This document shows, one piece after another, positions 6,138 to 23,858 of a stretch of 32,324 nt of DNA (position 1 is the stretch's first letter; each line of letters begins with the position of its first letter). Source of the DNA: Candidatus Micrarchaeota archaeon (lineage in GTDB: Archaea > Micrarchaeota > Micrarchaeia > Norongarragalinales > JACRGE01); NCBI GenBank assembly GCA_016212465.1, contig JACRGE010000013.1, positions 1-32,324 on the forward strand, written 5' to 3'. A program made the translations under genes and the position numbers. The notes under the pieces are model-generated. The model saw nothing but the letters and a program-made list of their open reading frames with translations. It was not told where the DNA came from and made no database searches.

Positions 6138-8585
6138 ATGGATTTTTTTAATTTTAATAGTTTAAATATCTCTATTTATTTCTCAAGTGATTGGATGGAA
6201 GCAGAGGAAAAAATAATTGCACTATTTAACCCGCTCATGAGAAGGTTTTTCCGCAAGGAGCCTGGTTTCAACGAAAGAGTACGACTTTTGTTTAACTATG
6301 TTTTGAAAAACCAGTTTCTCAGGTTTTGTTTAGTCGGCGGGATTGCGACCATAGTCAACTATGCAGTTTTTCTTCTGTTTCTGTTGTTCTTCCACATCAA
6401 CTATCTCGTTTCCTCTGCTGTGGGATATGTTTCAGGCGTTTTTGTAGGATTCGACTTGAACAAGAAATTCACTTTCAAATCCGAGTCGAAGGAGTACTAC
6501 TCGGAAGTGATGGAGTACTTCGCGGTTTATACCATTTCGCTTTTTCTGGGTTTGGGCTTCCTGGCTTTTCTGGTAAACCTTAAACTGAATGTACTGCTTG
6601 CAAACGTTTTTTCCATAGCCCTCACCACGATGACCAATTTCTTGGGCGTGAAGTTCTTTGTTTTCAGCGATGCGGTATTTCATAAAAAAATAAATTTCTT
6701 GATCTACAGGTACCGTTATCTCCTAAATTACATGATCATTGGACTAAGTTCTATTATCGTCGAGATTGCCATCCTCTACTTCCTCGGACTGGGTTACGGC
6801 GATTTTTACCTTAAACTGCCTATCGGATTTTTGTCTGGTGTGTTGTTCAGCTACTACCTGAATGCAAAGCTCAACTTCAAGGTTCCAAAGGAAAAGAATT
6901 GGAGAACCTTCCGAATATTCCTCATAATTTCCGTATTCGCTTTTGCGTTAAACCTGCTTTTAATGAAGGTTATATACGGTCTGTTCATTTTCTCAAACTA
7001 CTCTGTTTCAAGACTCTTTACTTCCGCATGTATTTTCATGATAAGCTACTCGCTTCACAGGAGATTCACCTTCACTGACGTAAAGGAGGTTGGCGTCGCA
7101 ATTTATCTTTCAGATGGGGAAGATCTTGGGGAGATAAAGTCCAAAGTAAAACACTACCCGGATTTCATTCACTTGGATTTAGTGGACAAAACATATGCTC
7201 CTAGTGCAGCCAAAGTAGATCTCGATATGGCTGAACAGGTAGCGAGGGAATGGCCCCTTCTCCCCAAGATGCTTCACGTAATGTCTCGCCATCCAATCAA
7301 ATGGATTGAATCTGCTCACACGCAAGCCGATTACATCGTCTTCCACGCGGAAAGTGATGAAGACCCAAACAAGGTTATAAGTCTTTGCAGAAGACTCGGC
7401 AAAAAAGTCGGCATTTCCGTTCGAGTGGACACGAATCTGAAAGAAATCGAGAAATATTTCAGCAAAGTAGATCTTGTTCAAATACTGGGCATAAGGAACC
7501 CAGGCTATTCCAACCAGCACATGGAGGCCGAGGCGTTGGAGAAACTGCGCGAGCTCAACCAATACAGGAAGAGATATCCCTTTGAAGTCTGCATGGACGG
7601 CGGGGTCAAGCTCACCAACATCCACTTGATTGATGCGAGATATATCGTGTCAGCTTCCTCCGTGCTGAAATCAAGCGATTCGGTGAAAGCAATCTATGAT
7701 TTAAAGACCAGCGCCAGGTATTTCTACGATTACGACAAGAATTTCGTGAAGTTCATTGAAACTGAAGTCAAAAACGCTGTGGAGCGGCTTGATTTCATTG
7801 AATCTGGAACGTTTGTAGGCTCATTCGCCGAAAAACCGGGGCTCGAGGGCATCGCGGACATAGACGTAGTAATCATAGTGGATAAGCTAACCAGACAAAA
7901 ATATGGGAAGTTGTTGGCTCAGTTTGAGGAATTGAAGGAAATAATCAAAACTGATTTCGGCTATGACCCTGTAGTAAACCCGACTTTTGGCCCATTGAAA
8001 TTCAATTCAAGCGAAAAATCCGTTGTCCTTCATGTGATGATATACGACATAGCCGGGCACGTGGAGCACTGCAAGGAAAGTCCTTTCACATGCTTGGACT
8101 GGCAACGGTCGCCCCGCTATTTCAAGAAACCCATGTCATACTTCTGCGAAGTAACGTGCCTCAAGCCAAACGATTTCTTCAACGCCAGGCGCTCGGTGAG
8201 CGACTACTTGAAGGACCTCAAGAACTCCAGGATCTCCTACAGGGAATACGAGTTCAACGGCACTGCAACTAAACAAGTGAAGAAATACGTTCCAATGGGC
8301 AATAGGGACCGCTTTGAGTTCTCTTATCACATCATGAAATTCTGCATGCTGAATTTCCTGAAGCTCTACACTAAAAGCAATTACTGGGGCTCACCAGAGG
8401 GGATTGTGGATTCTTATTTCGACGTGTTTGGAGTTAATGCCGAGCAGCACAAAAAGTTTTTCTTTGACTTGCGTGAATTCAAGTTGCAGAACCGGTTCCC
8501 GAATTGGTCTGACAAGCACGAGGCAGGCATTTACGAATTCCTGAAAGACTTCGAAACCCAGTTCAAGGGATATTTCTATGACTAA
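6138..8585 (+). CDS. multidomain membrane protein: two GtrA-like 4-TM modules + ribulose-phosphate-3-epimerase-like TIM barrel + pol-beta-superfamily nucleotidyltransferase-fold (LicD/fukutin- or MNT-like) domain
   Basis: Residues ~60-180 and ~190-310 each form a GtrA-like set of helices (FCLVGGIATIVNYAVF...; YRYLLNYMIIGLSSIIVEIAILYF...). Residues ~320-520 carry IHLDLVDKTY, LHVMS, FHAESD, ILGIRNPGYSNQ and CMDGGVK, which line up with the RPE motifs H-x-D, HLMV, FH-E, NPGFGGQ and VDGGV. Residues ~560-600 read GTFVGSFAEKPGLEGIADIDVVIIVD, i.e. the G[ST]xxG...DxD nucleotidyltransferase-fold motif. Confidence 0.6.
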   Translation: MDFFNFNSLNISIYFSSDWMEAEEKIIALFNPLMRRFFRKEPGFNERVRLLFNYVLKNQFLRFCLVGGIATIVNYAVFLLFLLFFHINYLVSSAVGYVSGVFVGFDLNKKFTFKSESKEYYSEVMEYFAVYTISLFLGLGFLAFLVNLKLNVLLANVFSIALTTMTNFLGVKFFVFSDAVFHKKINFLIYRYRYLLNYMIIGLSSIIVEIAILYFLGLGYGDFYLKLPIGFLSGVLFSYYLNAKLNFKVPKEKNWRTFRIFLIISVFAFALNLLLMKVIYGLFIFSNYSVSRLFTSACIFMISYSLHRRFTFTDVKEVGVAIYLSDGEDLGEIKSKVKHYPDFIHLDLVDKTYAPSAAKVDLDMAEQVAREWPLLPKMLHVMSRHPIKWIESAHTQADYIVFHAESDEDPNKVISLCRRLGKKVGISVRVDTNLKEIEKYFSKVDLVQILGIRNPGYSNQHMEAEALEKLRELNQYRKRYPFEVCMDGGVKLTNIHLIDARYIVSASSVLKSSDSVKAIYDLKTSARYFYDYDKNFVKFIETEVKNAVERLDFIESGTFVGSFAEKPGLEGIADIDVVIIVDKLTRQKYGKLLAQFEELKEIIKTDFGYDPVVNPTFGPLKFNSSEKSVVLHVMIYDIAGHVEHCKESPFTCLDWQRSPRYFKKPMSYFCEVTCLKPNDFFNARRSVSDYLKDLKNSRISYREYEFNGTATKQVKKYVPMGNRDRFEFSYHIMKFCMLNFLKLYTKSNYWGSPEGIVDSYFDVFGVNAEQHKKFFFDLREFKLQNRFPNWSDKHEAGIYEFLKDFETQFKGYFYD

Positions 8586-10630: not shown

Positions 10631-11653
10631 TCAGGTAGAACGCAGGATATGCTCACAACCAGAGGGGTCCAGGAACTGCATGAAAAGAAACAACTTGAGA
10701 TACCCGAGATAAGGGATCCGGTAGAGGATTTTCCCATGGGCGTGGTTTTCTTTCACTGGTTCGATCCCATAGAGCTGGTCAGGAAACTGGTTGTTGTCAC
10801 CCCAAGTCAGGTAGTAAGTACCGTCGTCCGCAACTATTTTCAAAAAAACACGGTGGATGATGAGACCGTATCCTTTTTCTTTTGGGAGTGCACCGTATAC
10901 AATGATTTCATCTGAGGCGTTTCTAAGAAACGTCTTTCCTTCGTAGGAAATGCTTTTCAAACAAGGAACGATCGTACCCTCCCAATCGCATCTGCCGGCA
11001 TTCAGCTCAAACAATTCCTTGTCATCCAAAACAGGGGCATACAGTTGAACTGCCTTATCCTCGCTGAAGGGAAGCTCTTTTGCAGCAAAACGCACTTTAG
11101 AGAAATCCCCGTTGAAGCGTATTGTCTGAGCTTCTACATAGCCCCCTTTCAAGACTATCATGTCGCCCCGCTCCAAGACAGGGAGCATGCTACAGGAGGT
11201 CACAACATCAATGGGGGTAGTAGTACCGAGAGCAGCTATTATCACGAACCACCCCGCAAGTGCAACGTCAAGCGCATAAACCAGCTCAAGTATTGAGTCC
11301 CTTATTCCTTCGTGGTCCCATTTTTTGGGAACGATATCCAATGCGAAAAGTAGGACAAGGCCCAAAAAAATTAAGACCGCGAAAGCAACTTCCTTGGTGA
11401 GGAGGTAGAGAGCGAAAGAAAGCACGAGCAAAGCAAGAGCAGCGTTGCCCCAGTTGAACCCCTTTACTTTTTCGGGTTTTGTTTTAGGAAGACGGACGTG
11501 ATCCAACAGAAGGTAGATTCCAGCCAGGATCAAAACTAAAACGAAGAGAACCACGCCAATGAAATTGTCTGTTGCAACCCCTAGGTAAAGCGAGCCCAAG
11601 ACAGCGAAAAGGAAGCCAGCGTAGATTGAAAACCTTTTTTTAAGAAAGTCCAT
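10631..11653 (-). CDS. signal peptidase I, archaeal/Sec11 type (S26B), with an N-terminal multi-TM extension
   Basis: Four N-terminal TM helices, then VVTSCSMLPVLERGDMIVL (the Ser motif), HRV and GDNN motifs typical of archaeal/ER-type signal peptidase. Confidence 0.65.
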   Translation of the reverse strand: MDFLKKRFSIYAGFLFAVLGSLYLGVATDNFIGVVLFVLVLILAGIYLLLDHVRLPKTKPEKVKGFNWGNAALALLVLSFALYLLTKEVAFAVLIFLGLVLLFALDIVPKKWDHEGIRDSILELVYALDVALAGWFVIIAALGTTTPIDVVTSCSMLPVLERGDMIVLKGGYVEAQTIRFNGDFSKVRFAAKELPFSEDKAVQLYAPVLDDKELFELNAGRCDWEGTIVPCLKSISYEGKTFLRNASDEIIVYGALPKEKGYGLIIHRVFLKIVADDGTYYLTWGDNNQFPDQLYGIEPVKENHAHGKILYRIPYLGYLKLFLFMQFLDPSGCEHILRST

Positions 11654-11687: not shown

Positions 11688-12251
11688 TTAAGCTCTTCCC
11701 CTGGACTCGCCTAAAACCACTCCAGAAGCAATAAGGTGAGCGAGCCTCAACGGCCAAGGGTATCCCTTGAAAGTTTTCAGAAATCCTCTTGAGTCAGCCG
11801 CGGAAATCCCCGCGCAATGAAAATGCAGCCTGTTGAACTCAAAGGATTCGCCGGCGTTTTTCAGCAATGCCGCACGCTTCTTCCAGTCCCGCAAGTTTTT
11901 TAATGCTGAAAGCACTTTTTTTTCATCCGCTTTTTTCCTCGTAACTGCAATAACTGGAATTTTAAGGAATTTGTAGACTTTCTTCAAGTCTAGTATATTG
12001 AAGCCCCCTAGGGTCACGCTGTGAACAAGAATCAGCCTTATCTGCTTGCCGAAACGCCCTGATTTCCGTATGGTAGAGATAAGCTTGTCAGTCGAATTCA
12101 GTCCATCTTTCTTTATGTGAAATGAAAGTATTCCCTCAACCGATTCATCTGAAGCTCCGCGGGAAACCACTCCGATGCAAAGCACTTTTGCTCCACCTAC
12201 TTTTTTGAAGGGAGAATCATCGATTGAAAGGACTCTTATTCCTTTTTTCAT
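11688..12251 (-). CDS. UPF0215/DUF99 family protein
   Basis: MKKGIRVLSIDDSPF...GVVSRG...GFNILD...PVIAVT matches the conserved archaeal DUF99 pattern. Confidence 0.5.
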   Translation of the reverse strand: MKKGIRVLSIDDSPFKKVGGAKVLCIGVVSRGASDESVEGILSFHIKKDGLNSTDKLISTIRKSGRFGKQIRLILVHSVTLGGFNILDLKKVYKFLKIPVIAVTRKKADEKKVLSALKNLRDWKKRAALLKNAGESFEFNRLHFHCAGISAADSRGFLKTFKGYPWPLRLAHLIASGVVLGESRGRA

Positions 12252-12349
12252 TGGATTACCAAAAGATTTCAGTGAAGGGGGACAAGATTGTTTTCCTTTC
12301 CACGAGCTTCTTTTCTGATTTCTAAAAGCTCCAGAATTTTTTCAAAAGG

Positions 12350-12607
12350 CTATCCTTCCTCAAAGGCGTTTTCAAATTCCTTAAGTTCGTCCTTGATTTT
12401 TTCTAGCGCCTTCTTGAGCCCCTTTTCAGGTCCCCTGCCTTTTATCTTTAGTATGGGATTGCCTGTAAGGGGATGGTCTGGCGCAGAAGCCGCGAATGTC
12501 ACACTCTTAGACGCAAGCAACTTTTCTGCTATAAGATTCGCGAGCCCCACATCCAATCCCTCCAACTTTATCTCAAGATAATCCTTTTCCTTTGAAAGCA
12601 TTTGCAT
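12350..12607 (-). CDS. rpoL: DNA-directed RNA polymerase subunit L (Rpo11)
   Basis: LEIKLEGLDVGLANLIAEKLL...VTFAASAPDHPL...PILKIK is the RpoL/Rpb11 fold signature. I chose the ATG at 12607 as the start because GGAGGG sits 5-6 nt upstream; the track ORF extends to 12625. Confidence 0.75.
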   Translation of the reverse strand: MQMLSKEKDYLEIKLEGLDVGLANLIAEKLLASKSVTFAASAPDHPLTGNPILKIKGRGPEKGLKKALEKIKDELKEFENAFEEG

Positions 12608-12637
12608 CCAGATCCCTCCATTCAAGTATTACCTGGT

Positions 12638-12779
12638 AAGGTTAGTTAAAGTTCTTGGTGTTTTAAGCATTGATTAGGCTGACAAAATATCTTTTTATTT
12701 TTTCAGCTTGTGCTTCAAATCTTTTGCTTACCGTAAATTCTTCTTGCTTCAACTAACTCCACAAAAATTTAAACAACCC
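12638..12779. repeat. inverted repeat copy A (142 bp) in the csl4-rpoL spacer
   Basis: It is the reverse complement of 17372-17513 with a single mismatch (g at 12681 versus a). It fills the gap between the csl4 stop (12793) and a point 31 nt upstream of the rpoL ATG. Confidence 0.85.
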
Positions 12780-12792
12780 CCAGTAAAAAACA

Positions 12793-13308
12793 TTAAAAGG
12801 GAAGCTTTCTTCTCTCGTTGTTCCTGCACTCTGGACAGACGAGGACTGTTCCCTTAAGCTCCAACTCACTTCTGCAGTTGGAACAGAATCCTTTTAAAAC
12901 ACCCAAGTCTTTTTCCGCGAGTGTCAGGTATATGCCGAGTGGTGTAATCTCTATCACTTTTGCTCTAATCAAGTCCCCGATCTTCAGAAAATCCCTGAAA
13001 CTCTCTACATAACCTCGCTTTATCTCTGAGATTCTAAGGTACGCATAGGTGCTGCTTGCAGCAGCCTTTTTCTCCGGCTCAAACCTTACGAGGGCAACCG
13101 TATCATAAAGGTCCTGGACAATTCCATAAACGATGTCGCCTCGCTTGAGCTTCTTTATCTCACTTCCAATAACTGAAACTGACCTCCGCCGAGCATCCTC
13201 CTTCTTCATTCCAGCTATTGAGGCATAGATCTTGCCCTCTGATTCATAAGTGCCTTCGGAAGGCATGAACTCCTCTGTCGTAGCCAAAAACTCTCCGGGC
13301 ACAGCCAT
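12793..13308 (-). CDS. csl4: exosome complex component Csl4 (S1 domain + C-terminal zinc ribbon)
   Basis: N-terminal PGEFLATTEEFMPSEGTY, S1-like GDIVYGIV...ISEIKRGYV...IGDLIRAKV, and a C-terminal CSNC...CPEC zinc ribbon. Confidence 0.75.
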   Translation of the reverse strand: MAVPGEFLATTEEFMPSEGTYESEGKIYASIAGMKKEDARRRSVSVIGSEIKKLKRGDIVYGIVQDLYDTVALVRFEPEKKAAASSTYAYLRISEIKRGYVESFRDFLKIGDLIRAKVIEITPLGIYLTLAEKDLGVLKGFCSNCRSELELKGTVLVCPECRNNERRKLPF

Positions 13309-13512
13309 GTTCCCACCATAGAAGAATAATTACTCTTAATCAAGTCCAGAACTCAAATAGAATCAATACCGCAAAGAGCGTAAACACTTTCAAAAAATTC
13401 GCTGAACCAATATGTTATGGAAGAGATTATTTAAAACCATTCTCCCCCCCCAATTTTCCAGACGAAAACCCTTGAAGGTAAATGTTTTATTGTTTCCTCA
13501 AGAAATGATTTC

Positions 13513-14352
13513 ATGGTTCTTGAATCCATTTTGAGTCCTGAGAGTGCTGAAAGAAATCCCTTGAAGATAGCGCTGCTTTCAGTAATATTTGTTTCAGTAG
13601 GCATCTTTTCCTCGATTTTCATCGGCTATCCGAATGGCTTTCTTCTGGTCGCCCTTGTCGCAGTTCCGTCAGTCCCGCTTATTCTAAACCTATTCAATTA
13701 TGAGGAAGAGGGGATAGAAGAAGGCAGTGTGTGGGGAAGCAGGATTGCAGCGAGGCATCTTCCAATCGTTGTTGTGCTAATCGCTTACTTCGGGGGCTTG
13801 CTGATCGGATTCGGTTTCTGGTACATCATCCTTCCTGACGAGACGGGCAACAGCCTGTTTGCAGTCCAAATAAACGAATTGAAGAATATTGGCGGCAGTT
13901 TCGGAAGCGTCGGGGGGTATGCAGTCAAAATGGATAGTGTTTCAGCATTTGAATTAATATTCATGCACAACCTTGAGGTCCTCGCATTCATTCTCTTATT
14001 CTCCATTCTTTATGGTTCGGGTGCAGTGTTTGTGCTCATCTGGAATGCTTCTGTAGTAAGCGTGTTCATAGTGAATATGGGAAAACAGTTTGTTTTGCAT
14101 GAAGCCCCTCAATTCTCTCTGATATCCGGTCTCAGCTACGGCATCCTTGGCCTGATTCCACACGGAACATTTGAACTCCTTGCATACTTGGTTGGTGCCC
14201 TCGCGGGAGGGATATTGAGCAGCGCGATAGTGAGGAAAGCTTATTTGAGAGGAGAATTTGCGACCGTAATGCGGGACATCGCGAAGCTGGCTGCCTGGGC
14301 AATCATATTCCTTGCCATCGGCGCAGTCATCGAAAGCCAGGCTTTTGCTTGA
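13513..14352 (+). CDS. SpoIIM/DUF95-like integral membrane protein
   Basis: Six predicted TM helices. The block IFMHNLEVLAFILLFSILYGSGAVFVLIWNASVV resembles the DUF95 core. Confidence 0.4.
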   Translation: MVLESILSPESAERNPLKIALLSVIFVSVGIFSSIFIGYPNGFLLVALVAVPSVPLILNLFNYEEEGIEEGSVWGSRIAARHLPIVVVLIAYFGGLLIGFGFWYIILPDETGNSLFAVQINELKNIGGSFGSVGGYAVKMDSVSAFELIFMHNLEVLAFILLFSILYGSGAVFVLIWNASVVSVFIVNMGKQFVLHEAPQFSLISGLSYGILGLIPHGTFELLAYLVGALAGGILSSAIVRKAYLRGEFATVMRDIAKLAAWAIIFLAIGAVIESQAFA

Positions 14353-14363
14353 AGAAAATAGAA

Positions 14364-15290
14364 TCATTCCTGTTCCTTCAAGCGTTTTATGATTGAGGCA
14401 ATCAGCGCGTTTCCCTCACTTGTTTCACTGCCTTCTGCTGTATCCTGCTTTCCCGAGGGCGCGATGCTGCCCGAGAGCAGTCGCGCGAGCTTCGAAAGCT
14501 CGAGGGGGTAGACTATTTTCGTTGCTTTGCCGTCTGCAACGTCCTTCAGAGACTGCAGATAAAAGTAAGCAAGCGTCTTGTCGTTCAATCCCTTCGTAGC
14601 GCGGTCTATAGTGTTTATGACGAGCTCGCGGGCCTCCATTTCGTGCCTGATCGCCTCCTTCCTTTCCTCTGCTTTCCTTCTGAGTTCCATCGCCTTCACG
14701 AGCTCGGGCGGGATTTTAAGCGCTTGTACGTCCACCTTCGTGGGAACAACTCCCCACGGCTCGCTTAAAGCAATCAAGTCGGTGAGAACGCGTTTGTTGA
14801 TCTCGTCTACTTTCTCCAGTACTTCTTCCAGAATCATTTTCCCGATAATATCCCTAAGCTCTGTTTGAAGCAAAGCAACTGCGGCGGTCTTGTACTCTTT
14901 TATCTCAATCACGTACCTCTTGGGGTCTGAAACTCTGTAGAAGAGAATAGGATCAATGGTTACTGTGAGATTGTCTTTCGTTAATATGCTCAGGGAAGGG
15001 GGGTCAACCGATTGAATTCTCAAGTCCACCAAGACCACGCGGTCGATGATAGAGAAAATCAGCCTCCAGCCGGGCCCAACGGTTTTATAATATTTACCGA
15101 ACCTAAACACCACTCCCCGCTCGTATTCCTTGAACTCCATCAAGGTGGGAAAGAAGGCAGCAATGAAAACCAGCAAAAGAAGCAAGGGAAAAAGAAGGAA
15201 GAGAGGCAGCTTGAGTACGAAAATCAGTCCGTATAATAAGGCAAGAATCAATGACACTACTCCCACGAATATTGTTACCTGCCGTTTCAC
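14364..15290 (-). CDS. SPFH/band-7 family protein (stomatin/prohibitin-like)
   Basis: N-terminal TM helix, then EYERGVVFRFGKYYKTVGPGW...ILTKDNLTVTIDPILFYRVSDP and a coiled-coil C-terminus. Confidence 0.7.
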   Translation of the reverse strand: MKRQVTIFVGVVSLILALLYGLIFVLKLPLFLLFPLLLLLVFIAAFFPTLMEFKEYERGVVFRFGKYYKTVGPGWRLIFSIIDRVVLVDLRIQSVDPPSLSILTKDNLTVTIDPILFYRVSDPKRYVIEIKEYKTAAVALLQTELRDIIGKMILEEVLEKVDEINKRVLTDLIALSEPWGVVPTKVDVQALKIPPELVKAMELRRKAEERKEAIRHEMEARELVINTIDRATKGLNDKTLAYFYLQSLKDVADGKATKIVYPLELSKLARLLSGSIAPSGKQDTAEGSETSEGNALIASIIKRLKEQE

Positions 15291-15330
15291 AAACCCACCA
15301 AAATATGTTACTACTCTAAAATAAGTAAAT

Positions 15331-15345
15331 CCAAAATTTATATTA
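15331..15345 (+). promoter_or_regulatory. BRE/TATA-like element (CCAAAA-TTTATATTA) in the stomatin/DUF373 divergent spacer
   Basis: It matches the archaeal TATA consensus TTTAWATA with a purine-rich BRE-like hexamer directly upstream. About 90 nt downstream there is a CCCC-ac-GGGG hairpin followed by CTTTTT. Confidence 0.3.
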
Positions 15346-15544
15346 CTTGCCTTTGGGAAGGTGGCTGCTTCTCGGCTTTTGAATCATGCGTTCAGCCCCC
15401 CGTTCACAAAACCAAAGAAACAATCCATTTTCCACCCCCCACGGGGCTTTTTGAAAGACAAAGCAGTTAAACGGAAGAGTAGTTTAATAACAAAAAACAT
15501 ATTATAAAATAGAATGCAGGATTAAATGAAAAGTGTTGATGTAA

Positions 15545-16780
15545 ATGCCTGAAGCAAAGCGGTTGCTTGTACTAGTGGTTGACGTAGACAACGACTTGGG
15601 CGAGAAAACTAAGGTGCGGGGACCAGTGGTAGGAAGGGAAAGGAACGTCGTGGCTGCAACCAAGCTTGCTATCGCCGACCCAGAGGACTCTGATGCCAAC
15701 ACAATGTTTGCAGCAGTCAAGATATATGATGAATTAAGGAAGGAAGAAAAAAAGGTTGAAATCGCGACGGTCACCGGTGACTCTCGGCTGGGCTATAAAG
15801 CTGACAGGAAAGTGATAGAACAGCTTGAGAAGGTGATAGGCGATTTCGCTCCGGAAGCATGCGTATTCTTAAGTGACGGTGCAAGCGATGACCAGGTTAT
15901 TCCAGTTATTCAGTCAAGGATAAAAATAAACAGCGTTCGCACTATTACGGTGAAGCAAACAAAGGAACTTGAAAAAACGTATTTTGTGGTCCTCGAGAAG
16001 CTAAAGGACCCAGCTGTTGCGAGAATCGTTTTCGGAATTCCAGGCATTGCCTTCCTGCTGTACTTTCTTATGCCAGATATTGGGTTAAAGGTTTTCATTG
16101 GTTTGCTGGGAGCTTATTTTTTACTCAAAGGATTCGGCATAGAAGAAAGAGTTTTCCGCGTAACGGAGTACGTGGAGCTGTCACCTGCACGGGTCAGCTT
16201 CGTATTTTATTTTGTTTCAATACTGTTCATCGTAGTAGGGCTCCTGCTAGCAGTTTACGAGATTTCAAACCACCAGCGTGCAGGCGTAACGAATCTGGCG
16301 AAGCTGAGTGTGTGGTTCATTAAGGACCTCTATATGCTTCCAGTCGCTTTGCTTCTGATGATTGTCGGAAAAGTTGTGGAAGCATTACACGACAAGAAAG
16401 ATTACCTTGTTCCGAGCCACGTGGTTACTGCAAGCGCAATCGTTCTCGTGTGGCTCATATTCAACAGCGCAGCGGAATGGGTCATCGGGCCACCCACGTA
16501 TAATACGACGTTTAGCTACTTCTTCTACCTCTCCATTCTGGCAGTAATTGCGATGACGCTGGTAATATACCTGGCGAGGGAATTCAGAACGGATTTGATT
16601 GCTAAGATGAGGTTGGAGGGAAAGGACGTGTACACGGAAATCGGGGGGAGGCTTGGGAAAATAGTTGAAGTGGACAAGAAGAAGGAAACCCTCATTATCC
16701 AAACCCCTTCGAACCACAAATTCGATCTGGAAGTGAGGCATATAGCAAACGTCGGTGAGAATGTCGTTGTAAGCTACTAA
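15545..16780 (+). CDS. DUF373-family archaeal membrane protein
   Basis: N-terminal soluble domain LVLVVDVDNDLG...ADPEDSDANT...VTGDSRLGY...LSDGASDDQVIPVIQSR followed by multiple TM helices. Confidence 0.5.
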   Translation: MPEAKRLLVLVVDVDNDLGEKTKVRGPVVGRERNVVAATKLAIADPEDSDANTMFAAVKIYDELRKEEKKVEIATVTGDSRLGYKADRKVIEQLEKVIGDFAPEACVFLSDGASDDQVIPVIQSRIKINSVRTITVKQTKELEKTYFVVLEKLKDPAVARIVFGIPGIAFLLYFLMPDIGLKVFIGLLGAYFLLKGFGIEERVFRVTEYVELSPARVSFVFYFVSILFIVVGLLLAVYEISNHQRAGVTNLAKLSVWFIKDLYMLPVALLLMIVGKVVEALHDKKDYLVPSHVVTASAIVLVWLIFNSAAEWVIGPPTYNTTFSYFFYLSILAVIAMTLVIYLAREFRTDLIAKMRLEGKDVYTEIGGRLGKIVEVDKKKETLIIQTPSNHKFDLEVRHIANVGENVVVSY

Positions 16781-17371
16781 AGCAGTAACCATCTAAATTC
16801 GTTAATCTGAATCAGAAATTAGCTTCAACAGAGTATCCAAAATTGTCGACAAGGAGAGGCCAGAAAGGCTTTTAAAGGTCAACTGCTTTAACAATTCATC
16901 TCGTGATGAGAATGAGTGACGCGATAAGGTTGTGGATGAATAAAGCCATGCTCGTTCTGCTAGGCGTTACTGTCTCATATCACTTTTGCCCGATTACAAA
17001 GGGAAAAGGAAGATGAAAACGGGATGACGCTCTTTTCTCGGCTTTTGAGACGCTGACCGGAATATGACTGAAGGAAAGGAAAAGCTACAAAATTTATAGG
17101 CTAGGTTGTGCTTTATTTGTCAAAATAAGCCCTAGGATGCTTTATTTTGCTGAAATAAGGCTCCTGGAACCGAAAAATTTAAATATAAGTTATGTGATAA
17201 ATATTTGATGGGGAATTTCTGAGGCAAGCCCAAGGAGGCAACTTGGAGTCATGCTTTCGGGAAAAGAGGAATCCATCCGAAAGGAGTAGAAAGACGGGAG
17301 GCAACCCCAAGGAGGTTTTCCAATATCCGGTTTTGCTCTCCCATCTCCTACTCTTTTTAGAAGCTTTTTTT

Positions 17372-17513
17372 GGGTTGTTTAAATTTTTGTGGAGTTAGTT
17401 GAAGCAAGAAGAATTTACGGTAAGCAAAAGATTTGAAGCACAAGCTGAAAAAATAAAAAGATATTTTGTTAGCCTAATCAATGCTTAAAACACCAAGAAC
17501 TTTAACTAACCTT
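17372..17513. repeat. inverted repeat copy B (142 bp) in the noncoding region between the DUF373 gene and the lonB 3' end
   Basis: It is the reverse complement of 12638-12779 with 141/142 identity. Weaker similarity continues to about 17356 versus about 12812 and covers a relic of the csl4 stop-codon region. Confidence 0.85.
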
Positions 17514-17608
17514 TTGGGGGTTAAAGTTAAATCTACTTTTGAAAATAAACGTTGCTGAGAAAAAAAGTTTCACGATTTTTGAGGCAGATACCAAAAAGCA
17601 ATTGGGAG

Positions 17609-19546
17609 TCATTCACTGAACTCCTTCTTGATCTTCAAAAGCAGTTCTTTCTTCTCTGGACAGTCTTTTAAAGCATGCGAAAGTACTTCATAGATGTTTG
17701 AAACGGGAATTATTTCAATTATGCGCCTTTGCTCATCGTCAAGCACCAGGTCTTCTTTGTTGGATTTCGGTATGATCACCTTCTTTGCACCTGCTTCAAT
17801 CGCGGCTTCCACCTTAGGGGTAACACCACCCACTGGAAGCACCTCGCCTCTTACTGAGAGAGAGCCAGTCATCGCGATGCTTTGGTAAACAGGGATTTCT
17901 TCCAAAGCAGAGACGACTGCAGTCGCAACTGAAATGGAACCTGAATCCCCTTCAACTCCCTCATAGGTTTGAATGAATTGAATGTGAATGTCGTAGGAAT
18001 AAATGTCTTTGCCGATGTGTTTCTTTATGATGGCTGAAACATTTTCCACTGCTTCGCGAGCGATCTCGCCGAGTTTTCCGGTTGCAATTATTTTACCTTC
18101 TTGACGTGAAGCAGCTGGAGCGACTTCGGCAACAATTGGACTGACGAGGCCAGAGCCAGTAGTGCCAGGCGTTCCAAAAACTGCGAGTCCATTTACCTTC
18201 CCAATCTCTTCTCCGTGAGTGACGAAGATTTGATAATCCTTCCGCAAGTCAATTGCCTGCTGGGTAATCTGTTGCTCTAGGGTGCTTGCCAATCCCTTCG
18301 CCTTCAACAAGTCTTCCCTTGAGACCAGGTTGGCGCCCTGTTCTTTTGCGATGTCACCAGCTGCCCGCACGAGGCCTCCGAGGTCACGGAGCTTTAAGGT
18401 AAGCTTATTCTTCCTGCCTGCACGCTTCCTTGCTTCTTTGATTATTTCCTCAACGGCTTCTCTGCTGAAGTGGGGGATTTTGCCGTCTTTCTTTGCTTCT
18501 TGCGCAACAAATTGAACGAGTTTCTTTCTGTTCTTGGGCGTGTCATCAATGCTTTCCTCCATGTAAACCTCATATCCATATCCTCTGATCCTGCTCCGCA
18601 ATGCGGGATGCATCTTTCTAATGTCCACGTAATTGCCTGAAGCGACGAGAACGAAGTCGCACGGAACCTGTTCTGTTCGAGTCATTGCACCAGAGCTCAT
18701 TTCGCTCTGACCACTTATCCCGTATCTCTTTTCCTGCATCGCGGTAAGCAGCTCTTGCTGAGCCTTGGGATGAAGCGTTGAAATCTCGTCTATGTAAAGA
18801 ACTCCCTTGTTAGCTCTGTGAATAAACCCTGGTTCAACCCTCAAATGAGCAGGAGTTCCGAGTCCGCCCGTCTGAAGGGGGTCGTGTTTCACATCGCCAA
18901 GCAATGCTCCCGCCCTTGCCCCCGTGGCATCCACGAAAGGCGCCTTCGTCTTTCCGGAGTTGTCTATCAATAGCTTGTAGGTTTCTGTTTCAACCATCAA
19001 CAGCCTAGCCCGACCGATCTGGGCTACGAACAAAAGTAAAACGCCAGAGATCATGAGACCAATAAGGAACGCTGCTATTATTACATCGCTGAAATATTTC
19101 CTGCCAAAAGACAACAGGAACATGATCATCAAAGAAATGAATACCAGAACCAATAGATTCAATGGCCCGCCGACCACCCTCTTCTTCATTCGCTCCGCTT
19201 CAATAATTTTTCTGCCTGCGCCTGCTTTTACCACAAGGACTTTCGGCTGGTTTTCATCCAAAGGATTCTGGCCAATGAGAATATCCTCCAATTCCTGGAC
19301 AGGAAGCAATTCAGCCATGGCTTGGGCCAGCATGCTTTTTCCCGTTCCAGGAACGCCGACTAACAAGACGTTTCTCTTCTGCTGAGCCGCTTTCTTCACT
19401 ACTTCACATGCTTTTTCCTGGCCTATAATCTGGTCTATGAGCCGCTCTGAAACAGGAATGTCAGCAGTCGACTTAAATCCTTCTAGAAAATCATTCTCCT
19501 CTCTCTTCTTGGAGGCCTTCAACGTCTTTTTCTTTCTCTCTGGCAT
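17609..19546 (-). CDS. lonB: ATP-dependent protease LonB, archaeal membrane-anchored form
   Basis: Walker [12 protein letters not shown], two TM helices inserted into the AAA+ module, and a C-terminal S16 protease domain ([20 protein letters not shown]). I place the start at ATG 19546 (MPERKKK...); the 22-codon upstream extension to 19612 would run into the divergent promoter region. Confidence 0.85.
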
Positions 19547-19585
19547 GAGACCACGCAATGCTGAACGGACGATAAATAGAATAAA

Positions 19586-19597
19586 CCCCGGAGGTAT
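19586..19597. promoter_or_regulatory. A/T-rich TATA-like element (TATAATAATATA) in the 83-nt divergent spacer between lonB and the HAD hydrolase gene
   Basis: Palindromic A/T box 33-50 nt from both divergent start codons. This is a sequence-only inference. Confidence 0.3.
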
Positions 19598-19629
19598 AAT
19601 AATATACTGCAACCCCGCTTAATAATTTC

Positions 19630-21869: not shown

Positions 21870-23858
21870 TTACAGGAAGTACTGGAAGTTGATTTTGCTT
21901 TCCTCCAATTTCTTCAATTCCTCTCGCACTCTTTTTGCATGCTCTTGGATTTCGTTAGTCCCTTCTGCCGAAATGTGCTTGTACCTTCCCTGAAGCTTCA
22001 GATAAGGTTCTACTGGTTTGAGTTCCGCAGGGGAGTAAGTGAACTTAAACAAGCCATTTTCTATTTCAAACAAGTTCCATAGGCCGCATTCAACCGCGCT
22101 TCTGGCTACGCCAACAGTCTGGTTGTTTGGAAAACGCCAGGAAAGAAAACAAGGGGCGTGAACCACAATGAAACGGAATCCGGTCATCGCCTTTGCTTTC
22201 TTCAGCTTTTTCTCAAAGTCAGGTAGGAATCCTATTGAAGCGGTTGCGGAATAAGGGACTGCGTGAGCAGTTGCAATGAACGCGACGTTCTTCTTCCACT
22301 CGTGTTTTCCACCCACTTCAGCAGGAGAAGTGGTAGTGGAAGCAAGAAATGGGGTGGCGCCACTTCTCTGAACTCCTGTGTTGTGAACAACGATGCCATC
22401 AGCGATGAAGTTATGCTCCCCCTCTACTCTTAAATCCAATGTTGGCTCTGTTCCTATTAATTTTTTGTATTTTACCTTCTCCATTTCAAAATACTGATTC
22501 CTTATTAAAAAGTTCTGGTACGTATACTGGCTTGGATATTTTTTGATATTCCACTCTTTTTTTTCTGAAAAGCAGATATACCCCCCTTCTGTGTCCTCTA
22601 ACAAATTTCTATAAACAATTTTAGTGCCTTTTTTTGTTTTTCGCCAATGTATTTTTCCAACCCTATAGTTCATGGTTTGCAAAAGCAGCCTAAGCCTATT
22701 TAGGAGATCACGACTTGATGAAACGAACCTAAAGCTGTTTTCAACCTTGTAGCCATCCGTTGATACGAGACCTCTGACAAAAGCTTTCTTTTCTTCTTTC
22801 GGAATCGTGAATACCCATTCGGGAATTGTTTTATTTTTTGCTCCATGACCAAAACCCATAGAATCAATAAATCTTGCCAAGTTTACTGAATTGATGTATA
22901 AGTAGTTGCTATCAGTTCTGCTCACCCTGTTTTTAAAAATACGCGAGTGCAACCAAATCAATCTTTTTCTTTCCTTGCTTTTTTCTGGTAATGCGAATCC
23001 AGTTTCTGCCTTTTTGATTCTACACCATCCATCACCGACATACATACCGAGATATTCCATCAACTCGGGGCTAGATTTTTCGGGTATTGAGATGAAATTT
23101 ATTTTATTTACTTTATAGTCGCCTTTTTTTGAAAGTCTTATATTCTTAAACCTGAAAGACTCGGCAATTTCAAGGTTCTTTAGTACAACTACCTCATCAC
23201 CGATGTTAATCTTTGCAAGTGTCTTCCAGATCAGTGTGTTTTGCTTGCCTCTTCCATTTCTCTTTAGTATTAAAAAAGGATGATTTGAAGTTGCTTTTAT
23301 AGAGTGGTGTGATGTCTCTAATTCAAACACTGGTTTTTCACCATTGTCGAATACACCCGTGCATTTTTTAAGTATTGGCCTGTATGTTTTTTGATTAAAT
23401 GCATAGATTTTATCCCCCTCCTTAATTTCCATTATTTTTTTAATACCATGTTCTGTCATTATCAGTGTTGAGCGGCTCAAACAGTTCGCATAGCATTCGT
23501 TGTCGTAGCATATGCAAACCATATCCTCATTGCGTTCCATCGCCCCGCTCAATGCGCCAAAGCCTATGTCGTAAATGCCACCGTCTCCGCCAACGCAGAC
23601 TGAAACCCCTTTCTTCTTCTCGTGCTTTAAAGCCCGAGACACTCCAGATGCAACTGCGGGAGTGTTTTCAAAGAGCGAATGAATCAAAGGAACGTTCCAA
23701 GTGGAGTTAGGGTATTTCGTGCTTGTTACTTCCATGCAGCCTGTTGCAAGAGAAACAATTATATCTTCACCAAGTCCAGCGAGGAGGTTTCGAATAGCGA
23801 TGGCCGGCCCACACCCCGGGCATGACTTGTGTCCCTTGAAATACAGTTCTTTTTCCAT
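21870..23858 (-). CDS. porB: 2-oxoacid:ferredoxin oxidoreductase beta subunit (TPP-binding, PorB-like), interrupted by an intein
   Basis: N-extein HKSCPGCG...VCVGGDGGIYDIGF...CYDNECYAN and C-extein TGVQRSGATP... to the end rejoin into a protein of about 294 aa with a contiguous DNE.Y.NTG.QRS TPP-binding motif. Confidence 0.8.
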   Translation of the reverse strand: MEKELYFKGHKSCPGCGPAIAIRNLLAGLGEDIIVSLATGCMEVTSTKYPNSTWNVPLIHSLFENTPAVASGVSRALKHEKKKGVSVCVGGDGGIYDIGFGALSGAMERNEDMVCICYDNECYANCLSRSTLIMTEHGIKKIMEIKEGDKIYAFNQKTYRPILKKCTGVFDNGEKPVFELETSHHSIKATSNHPFLILKRNGRGKQNTLIWKTLAKINIGDEVVVLKNLEIAESFRFKNIRLSKKGDYKVNKINFISIPEKSSPELMEYLGMYVGDGWCRIKKAETGFALPEKSKERKRLIWLHSRIFKNRVSRTDSNYLYINSVNLARFIDSMGFGHGAKNKTIPEWVFTIPKEEKKAFVRGLVSTDGYKVENSFRFVSSSRDLLNRLRLLLQTMNYRVGKIHWRKTKKGTKIVYRNLLEDTEGGYICFSEKKEWNIKKYPSQYTYQNFLIRNQYFEMEKVKYKKLIGTEPTLDLRVEGEHNFIADGIVVHNTGVQRSGATPFLASTTTSPAEVGGKHEWKKNVAFIATAHAVPYSATASIGFLPDFEKKLKKAKAMTGFRFIVVHAPCFLSWRFPNNQTVGVARSAVECGLWNLFEIENGLFKFTYSPAELKPVEPYLKLQGRYKHISAEGTNEIQEHAKRVREELKKLEESKINFQYFL
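22380..23483 (-). mobile_element. intein (368 aa) with a LAGLIDADG homing-endonuclease domain, inserted in the TPP-binding motif of porB
   Basis: Starts with Cys (CLSRSTLIM), has a TxxH block (LETSHHSIKAT), two LAGLIDADG-like blocks (LMEYLGMYVGDGW and FVRGLVSTDGY), and ends ...FIADGIVVHN followed by Thr at +1. Short hand-counted samples give about 33% GC for the intein versus about 42% for the flanking extein. Confidence 0.8.

Follow-up and report, generated by a model that had tools for sequence, protein, structure and literature searches.

Several families of transposable elements of the miniature inverted-repeat type (MITEs) are known in prokaryotes, among them the Correia elements of Neisseria, ERIC/IRU of the enterobacteria and the SM elements of Sulfolobus, and derivatives of insertion sequences (IS) of the IS200/IS605 type are known that lack target duplications. 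MITEs are also known in DPANN genomes (PMC11602168), and IS200/IS605 elements have been reported from more than 65% of Micrarchaeota genomes (PMC13343696). Here we describe a 142-bp block that occurs twice, as an inverted pair, in a stretch of 32,324 bp (the window), which is the complete contig JACRGE010000013.1 of a metagenome-assembled genome (MAG) at NCBI labelled Candidatus Micrarchaeota archaeon (GCA_016212465.1), an uncultured member of the DPANN group. One copy (copy A) lies between csl4 and rpoL, and the other (copy B) lies beside the 3' end of lonB. We tentatively favour the reading that the block is a small AT-rich, non-coding MITE-like mobile repeat, two copies of which recently entered intergenic sites 4.6 kb from each other, oriented inversely.

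In a repeat search of the window, the two copies formed inverted arms of 142 nt each, 99% complementary and separated by 4592 nt. Direct comparison in the same sense found them identical at 141 of 142 positions, the sole difference being a G at 12681 against an A at 17470 (copy B, minus-strand reading). A preliminary description of this DNA had reported the same near-perfect repeat at the same coordinates and had noted that it fills most of the csl4-rpoL spacer, and on both points we agree with it. Within the window, a 41-mer taken from the block was counted exactly two times (0.00 expected from 100 shuffles), and blastn with a word size of 7 turned up neither a third copy nor a partial one across the 32 kb; the match ranking next was 15 nt long (E 0.5). 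The repeat has sharp ends: flanks of 40, 100 and 300 nt on both sides were similar at chance level only, as judged by gapped local alignment against shuffles. It had been proposed that degraded similarity continues beyond the block into a relic of the csl4 stop region, and that copy B therefore arose by duplication of the csl4 3' end together with the region upstream of rpoL. Neither proposal is supported (for the second, see also the spacer lengths below). The 40-nt right-flank alignment has a score of 13 that is equalled by 1280 of 2000 shuffles, and the supposed relic is the 3' end of an RNA gene followed by a run of T.

The copies differ at 1 position in 142 (0.7%), and the MAG differs from independently assembled contigs of the same region (see below) by 0.1-0.3%. 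Since the former value is not far above the latter, the copying of the block, or its last homogenisation, is recent on the scale of population variation. The near-identity of the copies implies a recent copy or homogenisation, and the earlier suggestion of recent duplication or gene conversion is a reasonable one given such high identity. The single mismatch cannot tell conversion from recency.

The block is about as long as one short read and its source contig is metagenome-assembled, two circumstances that would suit a segment of read length having been duplicated, or joined as a chimera, in the contig of the MAG. A second assembly, consisting of the Logan contigs of run SRR12113407, speaks against such an artefact. 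One Logan contig (L001) spans window positions 14134-17401 and stops exactly 30 nt inside copy B, and another (L087) spans positions 13715-12750 and stops exactly 30 nt inside copy A; each has 3 mismatches to the window. We assume a Logan k-mer of about 31, with which branching of the assembly graph is expected there at a true repeat boundary. Because these contigs run from unique DNA 30 nt into each copy, the junctions 17371/17372 and 12779/12780, two of the four junctions of the repeat, are present in the reads. The repeat pair is not an assembly artefact, an explanation that we regard as extremely improbable. Since both contigs end within the repeat, they are uninformative on linkage across it. 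At the repeat pair, assemblies of this organism from short reads break or could be given the wrong orientation.

We compared the two host spacers of the repeat with those of relatives, drawn from a set of 80 loci of species representatives in GTDB (1.27 Mb in all). The nearest DUF373 homologue is only 61% identical, and at such distances (61% or less for DUF373) the sequences of non-coding spacers are not directly comparable, in contrast to gene order. In 34 relatives the distance from the csl4 stop to the rpoL start lies between -10 and 128 nt (median 15.5 nt). In the window it is 185 nt, or 43 nt without the block. At the other site, the distance from the 3' end of the RNA gene mentioned above to the lonB stop is 245 nt in the window and 103 nt without the block, and about 70-120 nt in compact relatives (L026, L032, L054 and L002). 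Both host spacers are therefore longer than those of relatives by about one block length, which favours insertion at both sites without proving it. Since most of the relatives' csl4-rpoL spacers are short, copy A looks like an inserted sequence rather than the native rpoL promoter and leader for which it had been taken. Both of the closest syntenic relatives, L005 and L002, lack a comparable inverted repeat.

The block itself has a GC content of 31%, compared with about 45% for the window. Its longest internal open reading frames (ORFs) are of 28-29 aa, with none reaching 30 aa, and its concatenated six-frame translation had no protein match among 5.8 billion proteins (E up to 10). In length and in the absence of coding capacity, it falls within the range of MITEs (about 50-800 bp, non-coding). 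The two ends resemble imperfect inverted repeats of each other, with GGTTAGTTAAAGTTCT... at one end and GGTTGTTTAAATTTTT... on the opposite strand at the other. A gapped alignment of the first and last ~34 nt has about 26 of 34 columns identical and 4 gaps, and its score of 18 was reached by 61 of 5000 shuffles and by 5 of 870 window segments. When folded as RNA, copy A's plus strand (equal to the minus strand of copy B) is predicted to form one long imperfect hairpin (z = -3.65), whereas the opposite strand of the block gave z = -0.63 and the full csl4-rpoL spacer, taken in sense orientation, gave z = +0.48, neither of them better than shuffles. A 31-nt T-rich hairpin is found close to the block centre.

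A TATA-like box is present at each end of the block. The box at the left end, CTTTAACT on the minus strand (12651-12644), precedes the rpoL ATG by 37-44 nt, and the ribosome-binding site GGAGGG precedes that ATG by 7-12 nt. A similar box, of the CTTTAA type, stands 33-45 nt ahead of the start codon in several other genes of the window, with a ribosome-binding site of the GGTGG type after it. The box at the far end that had previously been proposed as the rpoL promoter (TTTAAATTTTT) would mean a leader of about 130-140 nt, which we estimate to be unusual for this genome. A promoter inside the block may drive rpoL. The two copies also resemble each other in what precedes them. In the reading towards rpoL, copy A comes after six T in a row, which begin 2 nt past the stop codon of csl4 and end 5 nt short of the block, and the corresponding reading of copy B follows a run of seven T that stands at the end of the RNA gene and abuts the block. 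Relative to the transcription unit upstream (csl4 in one case and the conserved RNA in the other), both copies are accordingly oriented alike, although this shared pattern, with two copies only, could be a coincidence.

The sharp ends, the expansion of both spacers by the length of the block, its AT-rich and non-coding sequence, its inverted-repeat ends and the hairpin on one strand, together with the precedent for MITEs in DPANN (PMC11602168) and the reported prevalence of IS200/IS605 in Micrarchaeota (PMC13343696), are the grounds on which we lean towards a MITE-like repeat. According to this interpretation, a transposase whose gene lies at another place in the genome would have moved the element in trans. 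Its insertion within the csl4-rpoL operon may have been tolerated because rpoL could still be transcribed, either by read-through or from the TATA-like box at the element's end, whose distance from the ATG is the usual one in this genome. As a putative by-product, the inverted pair would offer homologous recombination a substrate whose use would flip the 4.6-kb block. One may speculate further that the repeat is the first to be recognised of a MITE family specific to Micrarchaeota, with outward archaeal TATA boxes in its ends, that one copy was co-opted as the promoter of rpoL, the gene of an essential RNA polymerase subunit, and that the population carries both orientations of the 4.6-kb block; this whole set of claims we consider very unlikely to hold.

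A number of observations weigh against a mobile element. No target-site duplication common to both copies was found (boundary offsets 0-8 nt, repeat lengths 3-10 nt, no more than 1 mismatch overall). Copy B alone has, by eye, CCCAAAA on both sides of a slightly shorter core, with no equivalent at copy A. Immediately beyond the block, the two copies have different bases on either side (GGT/CAA and CCAG/AAAA), and the flanking bases share no common motif in either orientation, which leaves the inside of the shared block as the only place for a target of the IS200/IS605 type. The statistic for the terminal inverted repeats is modest (p ~0.01). Exact scans with three 20-24-mers returned 0 matches in the GTDB species genomes (a set to which the source MAG itself does not belong), the JGI metagenome contigs and IMG/VR; blastn in distant mode gave no match of the block in plasmids or phages, and blastn and nhmmer gave nothing below E 0.1 in the 80 relatives' loci. 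Pfam revealed no transposase among the window ORFs. Some relatives have native csl4-rpoL spacers of 84-128 nt, and others have roughly 1 kb or more inserted between lonB and the RNA gene, so that length alone is no proof of insertion. Finally, only two copies are known, as counted within the 32-kb contig, and they are close together, for which a one-off local duplication is the simpler explanation.

In such a one-off event, proceeding without a transposase, spacer DNA native to one site would have been copied once into the other in inverted orientation, possibly by templated repair of a break or by a replication template switch that used nearby sequence; this is the duplication model of the preliminary description, widened to allow either copy as the source. 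It would account for two copies only 4.6 kb apart that have neither a target-site duplication nor a transposase nor any similar sequence in the collections searched, and a long native spacer is conceivable given that the csl4-rpoL spacers of relatives reach 128 nt. Moreover, at copy A the inverted complementarity of the ends runs a few bases into the flanks (TTACCTGG / CCAG-TAA), and copy A could thus be the fuller version. What such copying leaves unexplained is that both sites, and not one, exceed the compact relatives by about a block length. The ends are also sharp, the claimed extension into the csl4 stop region being at chance level, and an arbitrary segment of spacer would not be expected to have terminal inverted repeats and hairpin potential. 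A one-off duplication is the main rival and a serious one, though we hold it to be somewhat less likely than the MITE-like reading. Side by side with these considerations stands the observation that two distant relatives (L086 9190-9317 and L065 3240-3364) have csl4-rpoL spacers of about 125 nt that are homologous to each other (89% identity) and contain a TATA-like TTTTTATAT, indicating that long spacers at this junction arose independently elsewhere. The only repeats in the relatives' long csl4-rpoL spacers were low-complexity runs of A.

Function rather than mobility could also have kept the copies alike, if the block were a regulatory cassette (a promoter and/or terminator, or a cis-acting RNA hairpin) needed at both sites and held identical by gene conversion. 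Copy A would then drive rpoL, and copy B would drive or terminate transcription between the RNA gene and lonB. The boxes at both ends, one of them at the usual distance from the rpoL start, the T-rich hairpin near the centre and the placement of each copy, in the same relative orientation, after the T-run terminator of an upstream unit are all in keeping with such a role. However, for relatives a csl4-rpoL spacer of about 15 nt is enough and no such element is present, only the lonB 3' end is recognisable downstream of copy B in the rpoL-ward orientation, the sense strand folds like shuffled sequence in both the block and the whole spacer, and one mismatch separates conversion from recency no better here than above. 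A cassette of this kind appears unlikely to us. The inverted pair of 142-bp arms is in principle a substrate for inversion, and in our assessment arms of this length and near-identity are presumably long enough for homologous recombination; a relative (L002) furthermore shows a past block inversion nearby, with other end points. Yet a programmed invertible segment, or the coexistence of both 4.6-kb orientations through recombination between the arms, meets several difficulties. Pfam scans of 28 ORFs found no transposase, integrase, invertase or recombinase in the 32-kb window, those relatives that still have these genes conserve the assembled orientation, flipping would split the conserved csl4-rpoL unit, and the Logan contigs that end inside the repeat carry no linkage information. 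We rate this explanation as highly improbable.

The comparison of gene order that the preliminary description had proposed bears directly on the last point. Micrarchaeota show a recurring order, <-hyp340 <-(Endo_dU) <-rpoL <-csl4 | (SpoIIM-> <-Band_7) DUF373-> <-lonB, with relative orientations as in the window. Since the gene order of the window is that of its relatives, the assembled orientation of the 4.6-kb block is the conserved one. In L002 (6806-9046), the csl4-rpoL-Endo_dU-hyp block is flipped relative to SpoIIM-DUF373-lonB when compared with the window and most other relatives; the end points of this evolutionary inversion differ from the repeat arms in the window.

The DNA beside copy B, which had been described as otherwise gene-free, contains a conserved structured RNA gene that abuts the repeat. 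Copy B begins 8 nt past the RNA 3' end (17363), and this end with its T-runs (...CUACUCUUUUUAGAAGCUUUUUUU) leads straight into copy B at 17372. A 16-nt core of the RNA, GGCAACCCCAAGGAGG, recurs with 1 mismatch at 17223-17238, and many relatives carry it in the spacer between DUF373 and lonB, on the same strand as DUF373. A covariance model (R1), built from six relatives only and with the window excluded, matched the window over the full length of the model with 32.7 bits (E 5e-6). R1 gave 17 matches at E <0.01, plus one chance-level match in L074, and where both genes are on the contig the match sits between DUF373 and lonB, convergent with lonB. The RNA is about 85-100 nt long and present in at least 17 Micrarchaeota genomes (16 relatives and the window). 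Its loop is nearly invariant (A.CCC.AAGGAGGCAA..UCC) and contains AAGGAGG, a perfect Shine-Dalgarno sequence. In an alignment fitted to the model R1, compensatory changes occur at 15 of 20 pairs, and 91.9% of cells pair, compared with at most 65% with slid partners. The window sequence is predicted to fold into a long hairpin (z = -3.7).

Neither the window nor the relatives gave an Rfam family match for this RNA (Rfam 15, gathering score). Signal recognition particle RNA, H/ACA and C/D box RNA were rejected as identities on motif grounds and for lack of an Rfam match. The RNA may therefore represent an undescribed family absent from Rfam. In the repeat and beside it, Rfam (at gathering thresholds, and at E up to 1 over 12300-17700) and a search for tRNA and tmRNA detected nothing, the matches at E up to 1 in 12300-17700 being at chance level and none of them in the repeat. 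The small ORFs encoded in the relatives' DUF373-lonB spacers had no homologue in the window by tblastn. Extra degenerate copies of the RNA core were seen in the window (17207-17278 and 17575-17612) and in L002 (11605, 11686 and 11744), and 17215-17252 resembles 17575-17612 at 71%; this suggests a tandem duplication of the RNA domain in this lineage. A 14-mer, CAGAAAGGCTTTTA, is identical in the window (16861-16874) and in L002 (11308-11321), at the same offset of 81-94 nt past the DUF373 stop, and looks like a promoter with a B recognition element and TATA box (BRE/TATA) reading towards the RNA region. With its good covariation support, the RNA beside copy B is the more useful by-product of this analysis.

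The genes around the repeat were identified by Pfam (Csl4, RpoL, SpoIIM, Band_7, DUF373 and LonB), in agreement with the NCBI protein names, and are listed in the table with the other features. Between the DUF373 gene and lonB there is a gap of 828 nt without a protein gene, within which copy B lies; the last 591 nt of the segment between the arms (16781-17371) have no annotated protein gene and hold the conserved RNA gene.

Table. Positions of the repeat copies, their ends, the conserved RNA and the neighbouring genes (window coordinates unless a relative is named).
Feature	Position	Strand	Remarks
Hypothetical 340-aa protein	10631-11653	-	Pfam and NCBI names
Endo_dU/DUF99	11688-12251	-	Pfam and NCBI names
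rpoL	12350-12607	-	Directly downstream of copy A; start matches 85-aa NCBI protein MBI5228554.1
Repeat copy A	12638-12779		Fills 142 of the 185 nt from csl4 stop codon (12793-12795) to rpoL ATG (12607)
Left terminal segment	12640-12671	+	GGTTAGTTAAAGTTCT...; imperfectly complementary to right segment (like a terminal inverted repeat)
Right terminal segment	12745-12778	+	...TGCTTCAACTAACTCCACAAAAATTTAAACAACC; holds palindromic TATA-like TTTAAA (12768-12773)
Block between arms	12780-17371		4592 bp: csl4, SpoIIM-like, Band_7, DUF373, then 591 nt
csl4	12793-13308	-	Pfam and NCBI names
SpoIIM-like	13513-14352	+	Pfam and NCBI names
Band_7/stomatin	14364-15290	-	Pfam and NCBI names
DUF373	15545-16780	+	Pfam and NCBI names
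Conserved structured RNA	17281-17363	+	Long hairpin, invariant loop GGCAACCCCAAGGAGG at 17300-17315; full-length match to R1
Repeat copy B	17372-17513		Reverse complement of copy A with 1 mismatch (17470); between conserved RNA 3' end and lonB 3' end
lonB	17609-19612	-	667 aa; convergent with RNA gene; stop codon 95 nt from copy B
RNA in relative L026	1495-1589	-	
RNA in relative L046	54-148	-	
RNA in relative L032	11465-11562		
RNA in relative L054	11635-11731		
RNA in relative L041	8133-8229		
RNA in relative L007	11551-11644		

Several features of the neighbouring protein genes were recorded along the way. A 36-aa ORF (17502-17612, minus strand) has an ATG that overlaps the lonB stop codon as ATGA. 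The lonB of the closest relative L002 (11858-15154, minus strand; 1098 aa) has an intein (Intein_splicing and LAGLIDADG_3), whereas that of the window, with 667 aa, has none. Elsewhere in the window, a 662-aa TPP_enzyme_C protein (21870-23858, minus strand) corresponds to the beta subunit of an enzyme of the pyruvate:ferredoxin oxidoreductase type, and an intein with a LAGLIDADG domain interrupts it at residues 133-493. The GC content falls to 0.35-0.36 over 22501-23500, within this intein-bearing gene. An 815-aa ORF (6138-8585, plus strand) joins GtrA/DPMS transmembrane domains to a ribulose-phosphate 3-epimerase domain, which is an unusual fusion.

Taken alone, the repeat is a small matter, one more short element, and of an ordinary kind, from a sparsely sampled lineage of DPANN. 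It indicates that a compact genome tolerates an insertion inside the conserved csl4-rpoL unit, and if the element is indeed mobile and has promoter-like ends, it would be an example of the rewiring of an archaeal operon by a MITE.

Among the known systems, the invertible promoter switches of the fim/hin type likewise have inverted repeats that bracket a DNA segment. Those switches, however, have repeats of 10-30 bp around a promoter of a few hundred bp and an adjacent recombinase, whereas here the bracketed segment consists of 4.6 kb of conserved housekeeping genes, with no recombinase in the window. Inversions mediated by copies of an IS or of rRNA genes resemble the present arrangement in having two near-identical inverted arms around several kb of genes, and differ from it in that the arms are here only 142 bp long and that flipping would break a conserved operon. 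The palindrome-associated elements derived from IS200/IS605 (PATEs) share with the block the absence of a target duplication and the presence of a hairpin, and their parent IS family is reported to be common in Micrarchaeota (PMC13343696). PATEs, on the other hand, insert 3' of a fixed 4-5-nt target and have separate subterminal hairpins; the block has no common flank motif, and its complementarity is between the two ends. Compared with MITEs, the block lacks a target-site duplication, was seen in two copies, has no cognate IS identified and has no similarity in the collections searched. Like them (see also PMC11602168), it falls in the size range of 100-200 bp and is non-coding, AT-rich and intergenic, with near-identical copies, candidate imperfect terminal inverted repeats, a predicted long hairpin fold and promoter-like boxes in its ends that would be able to read outward.

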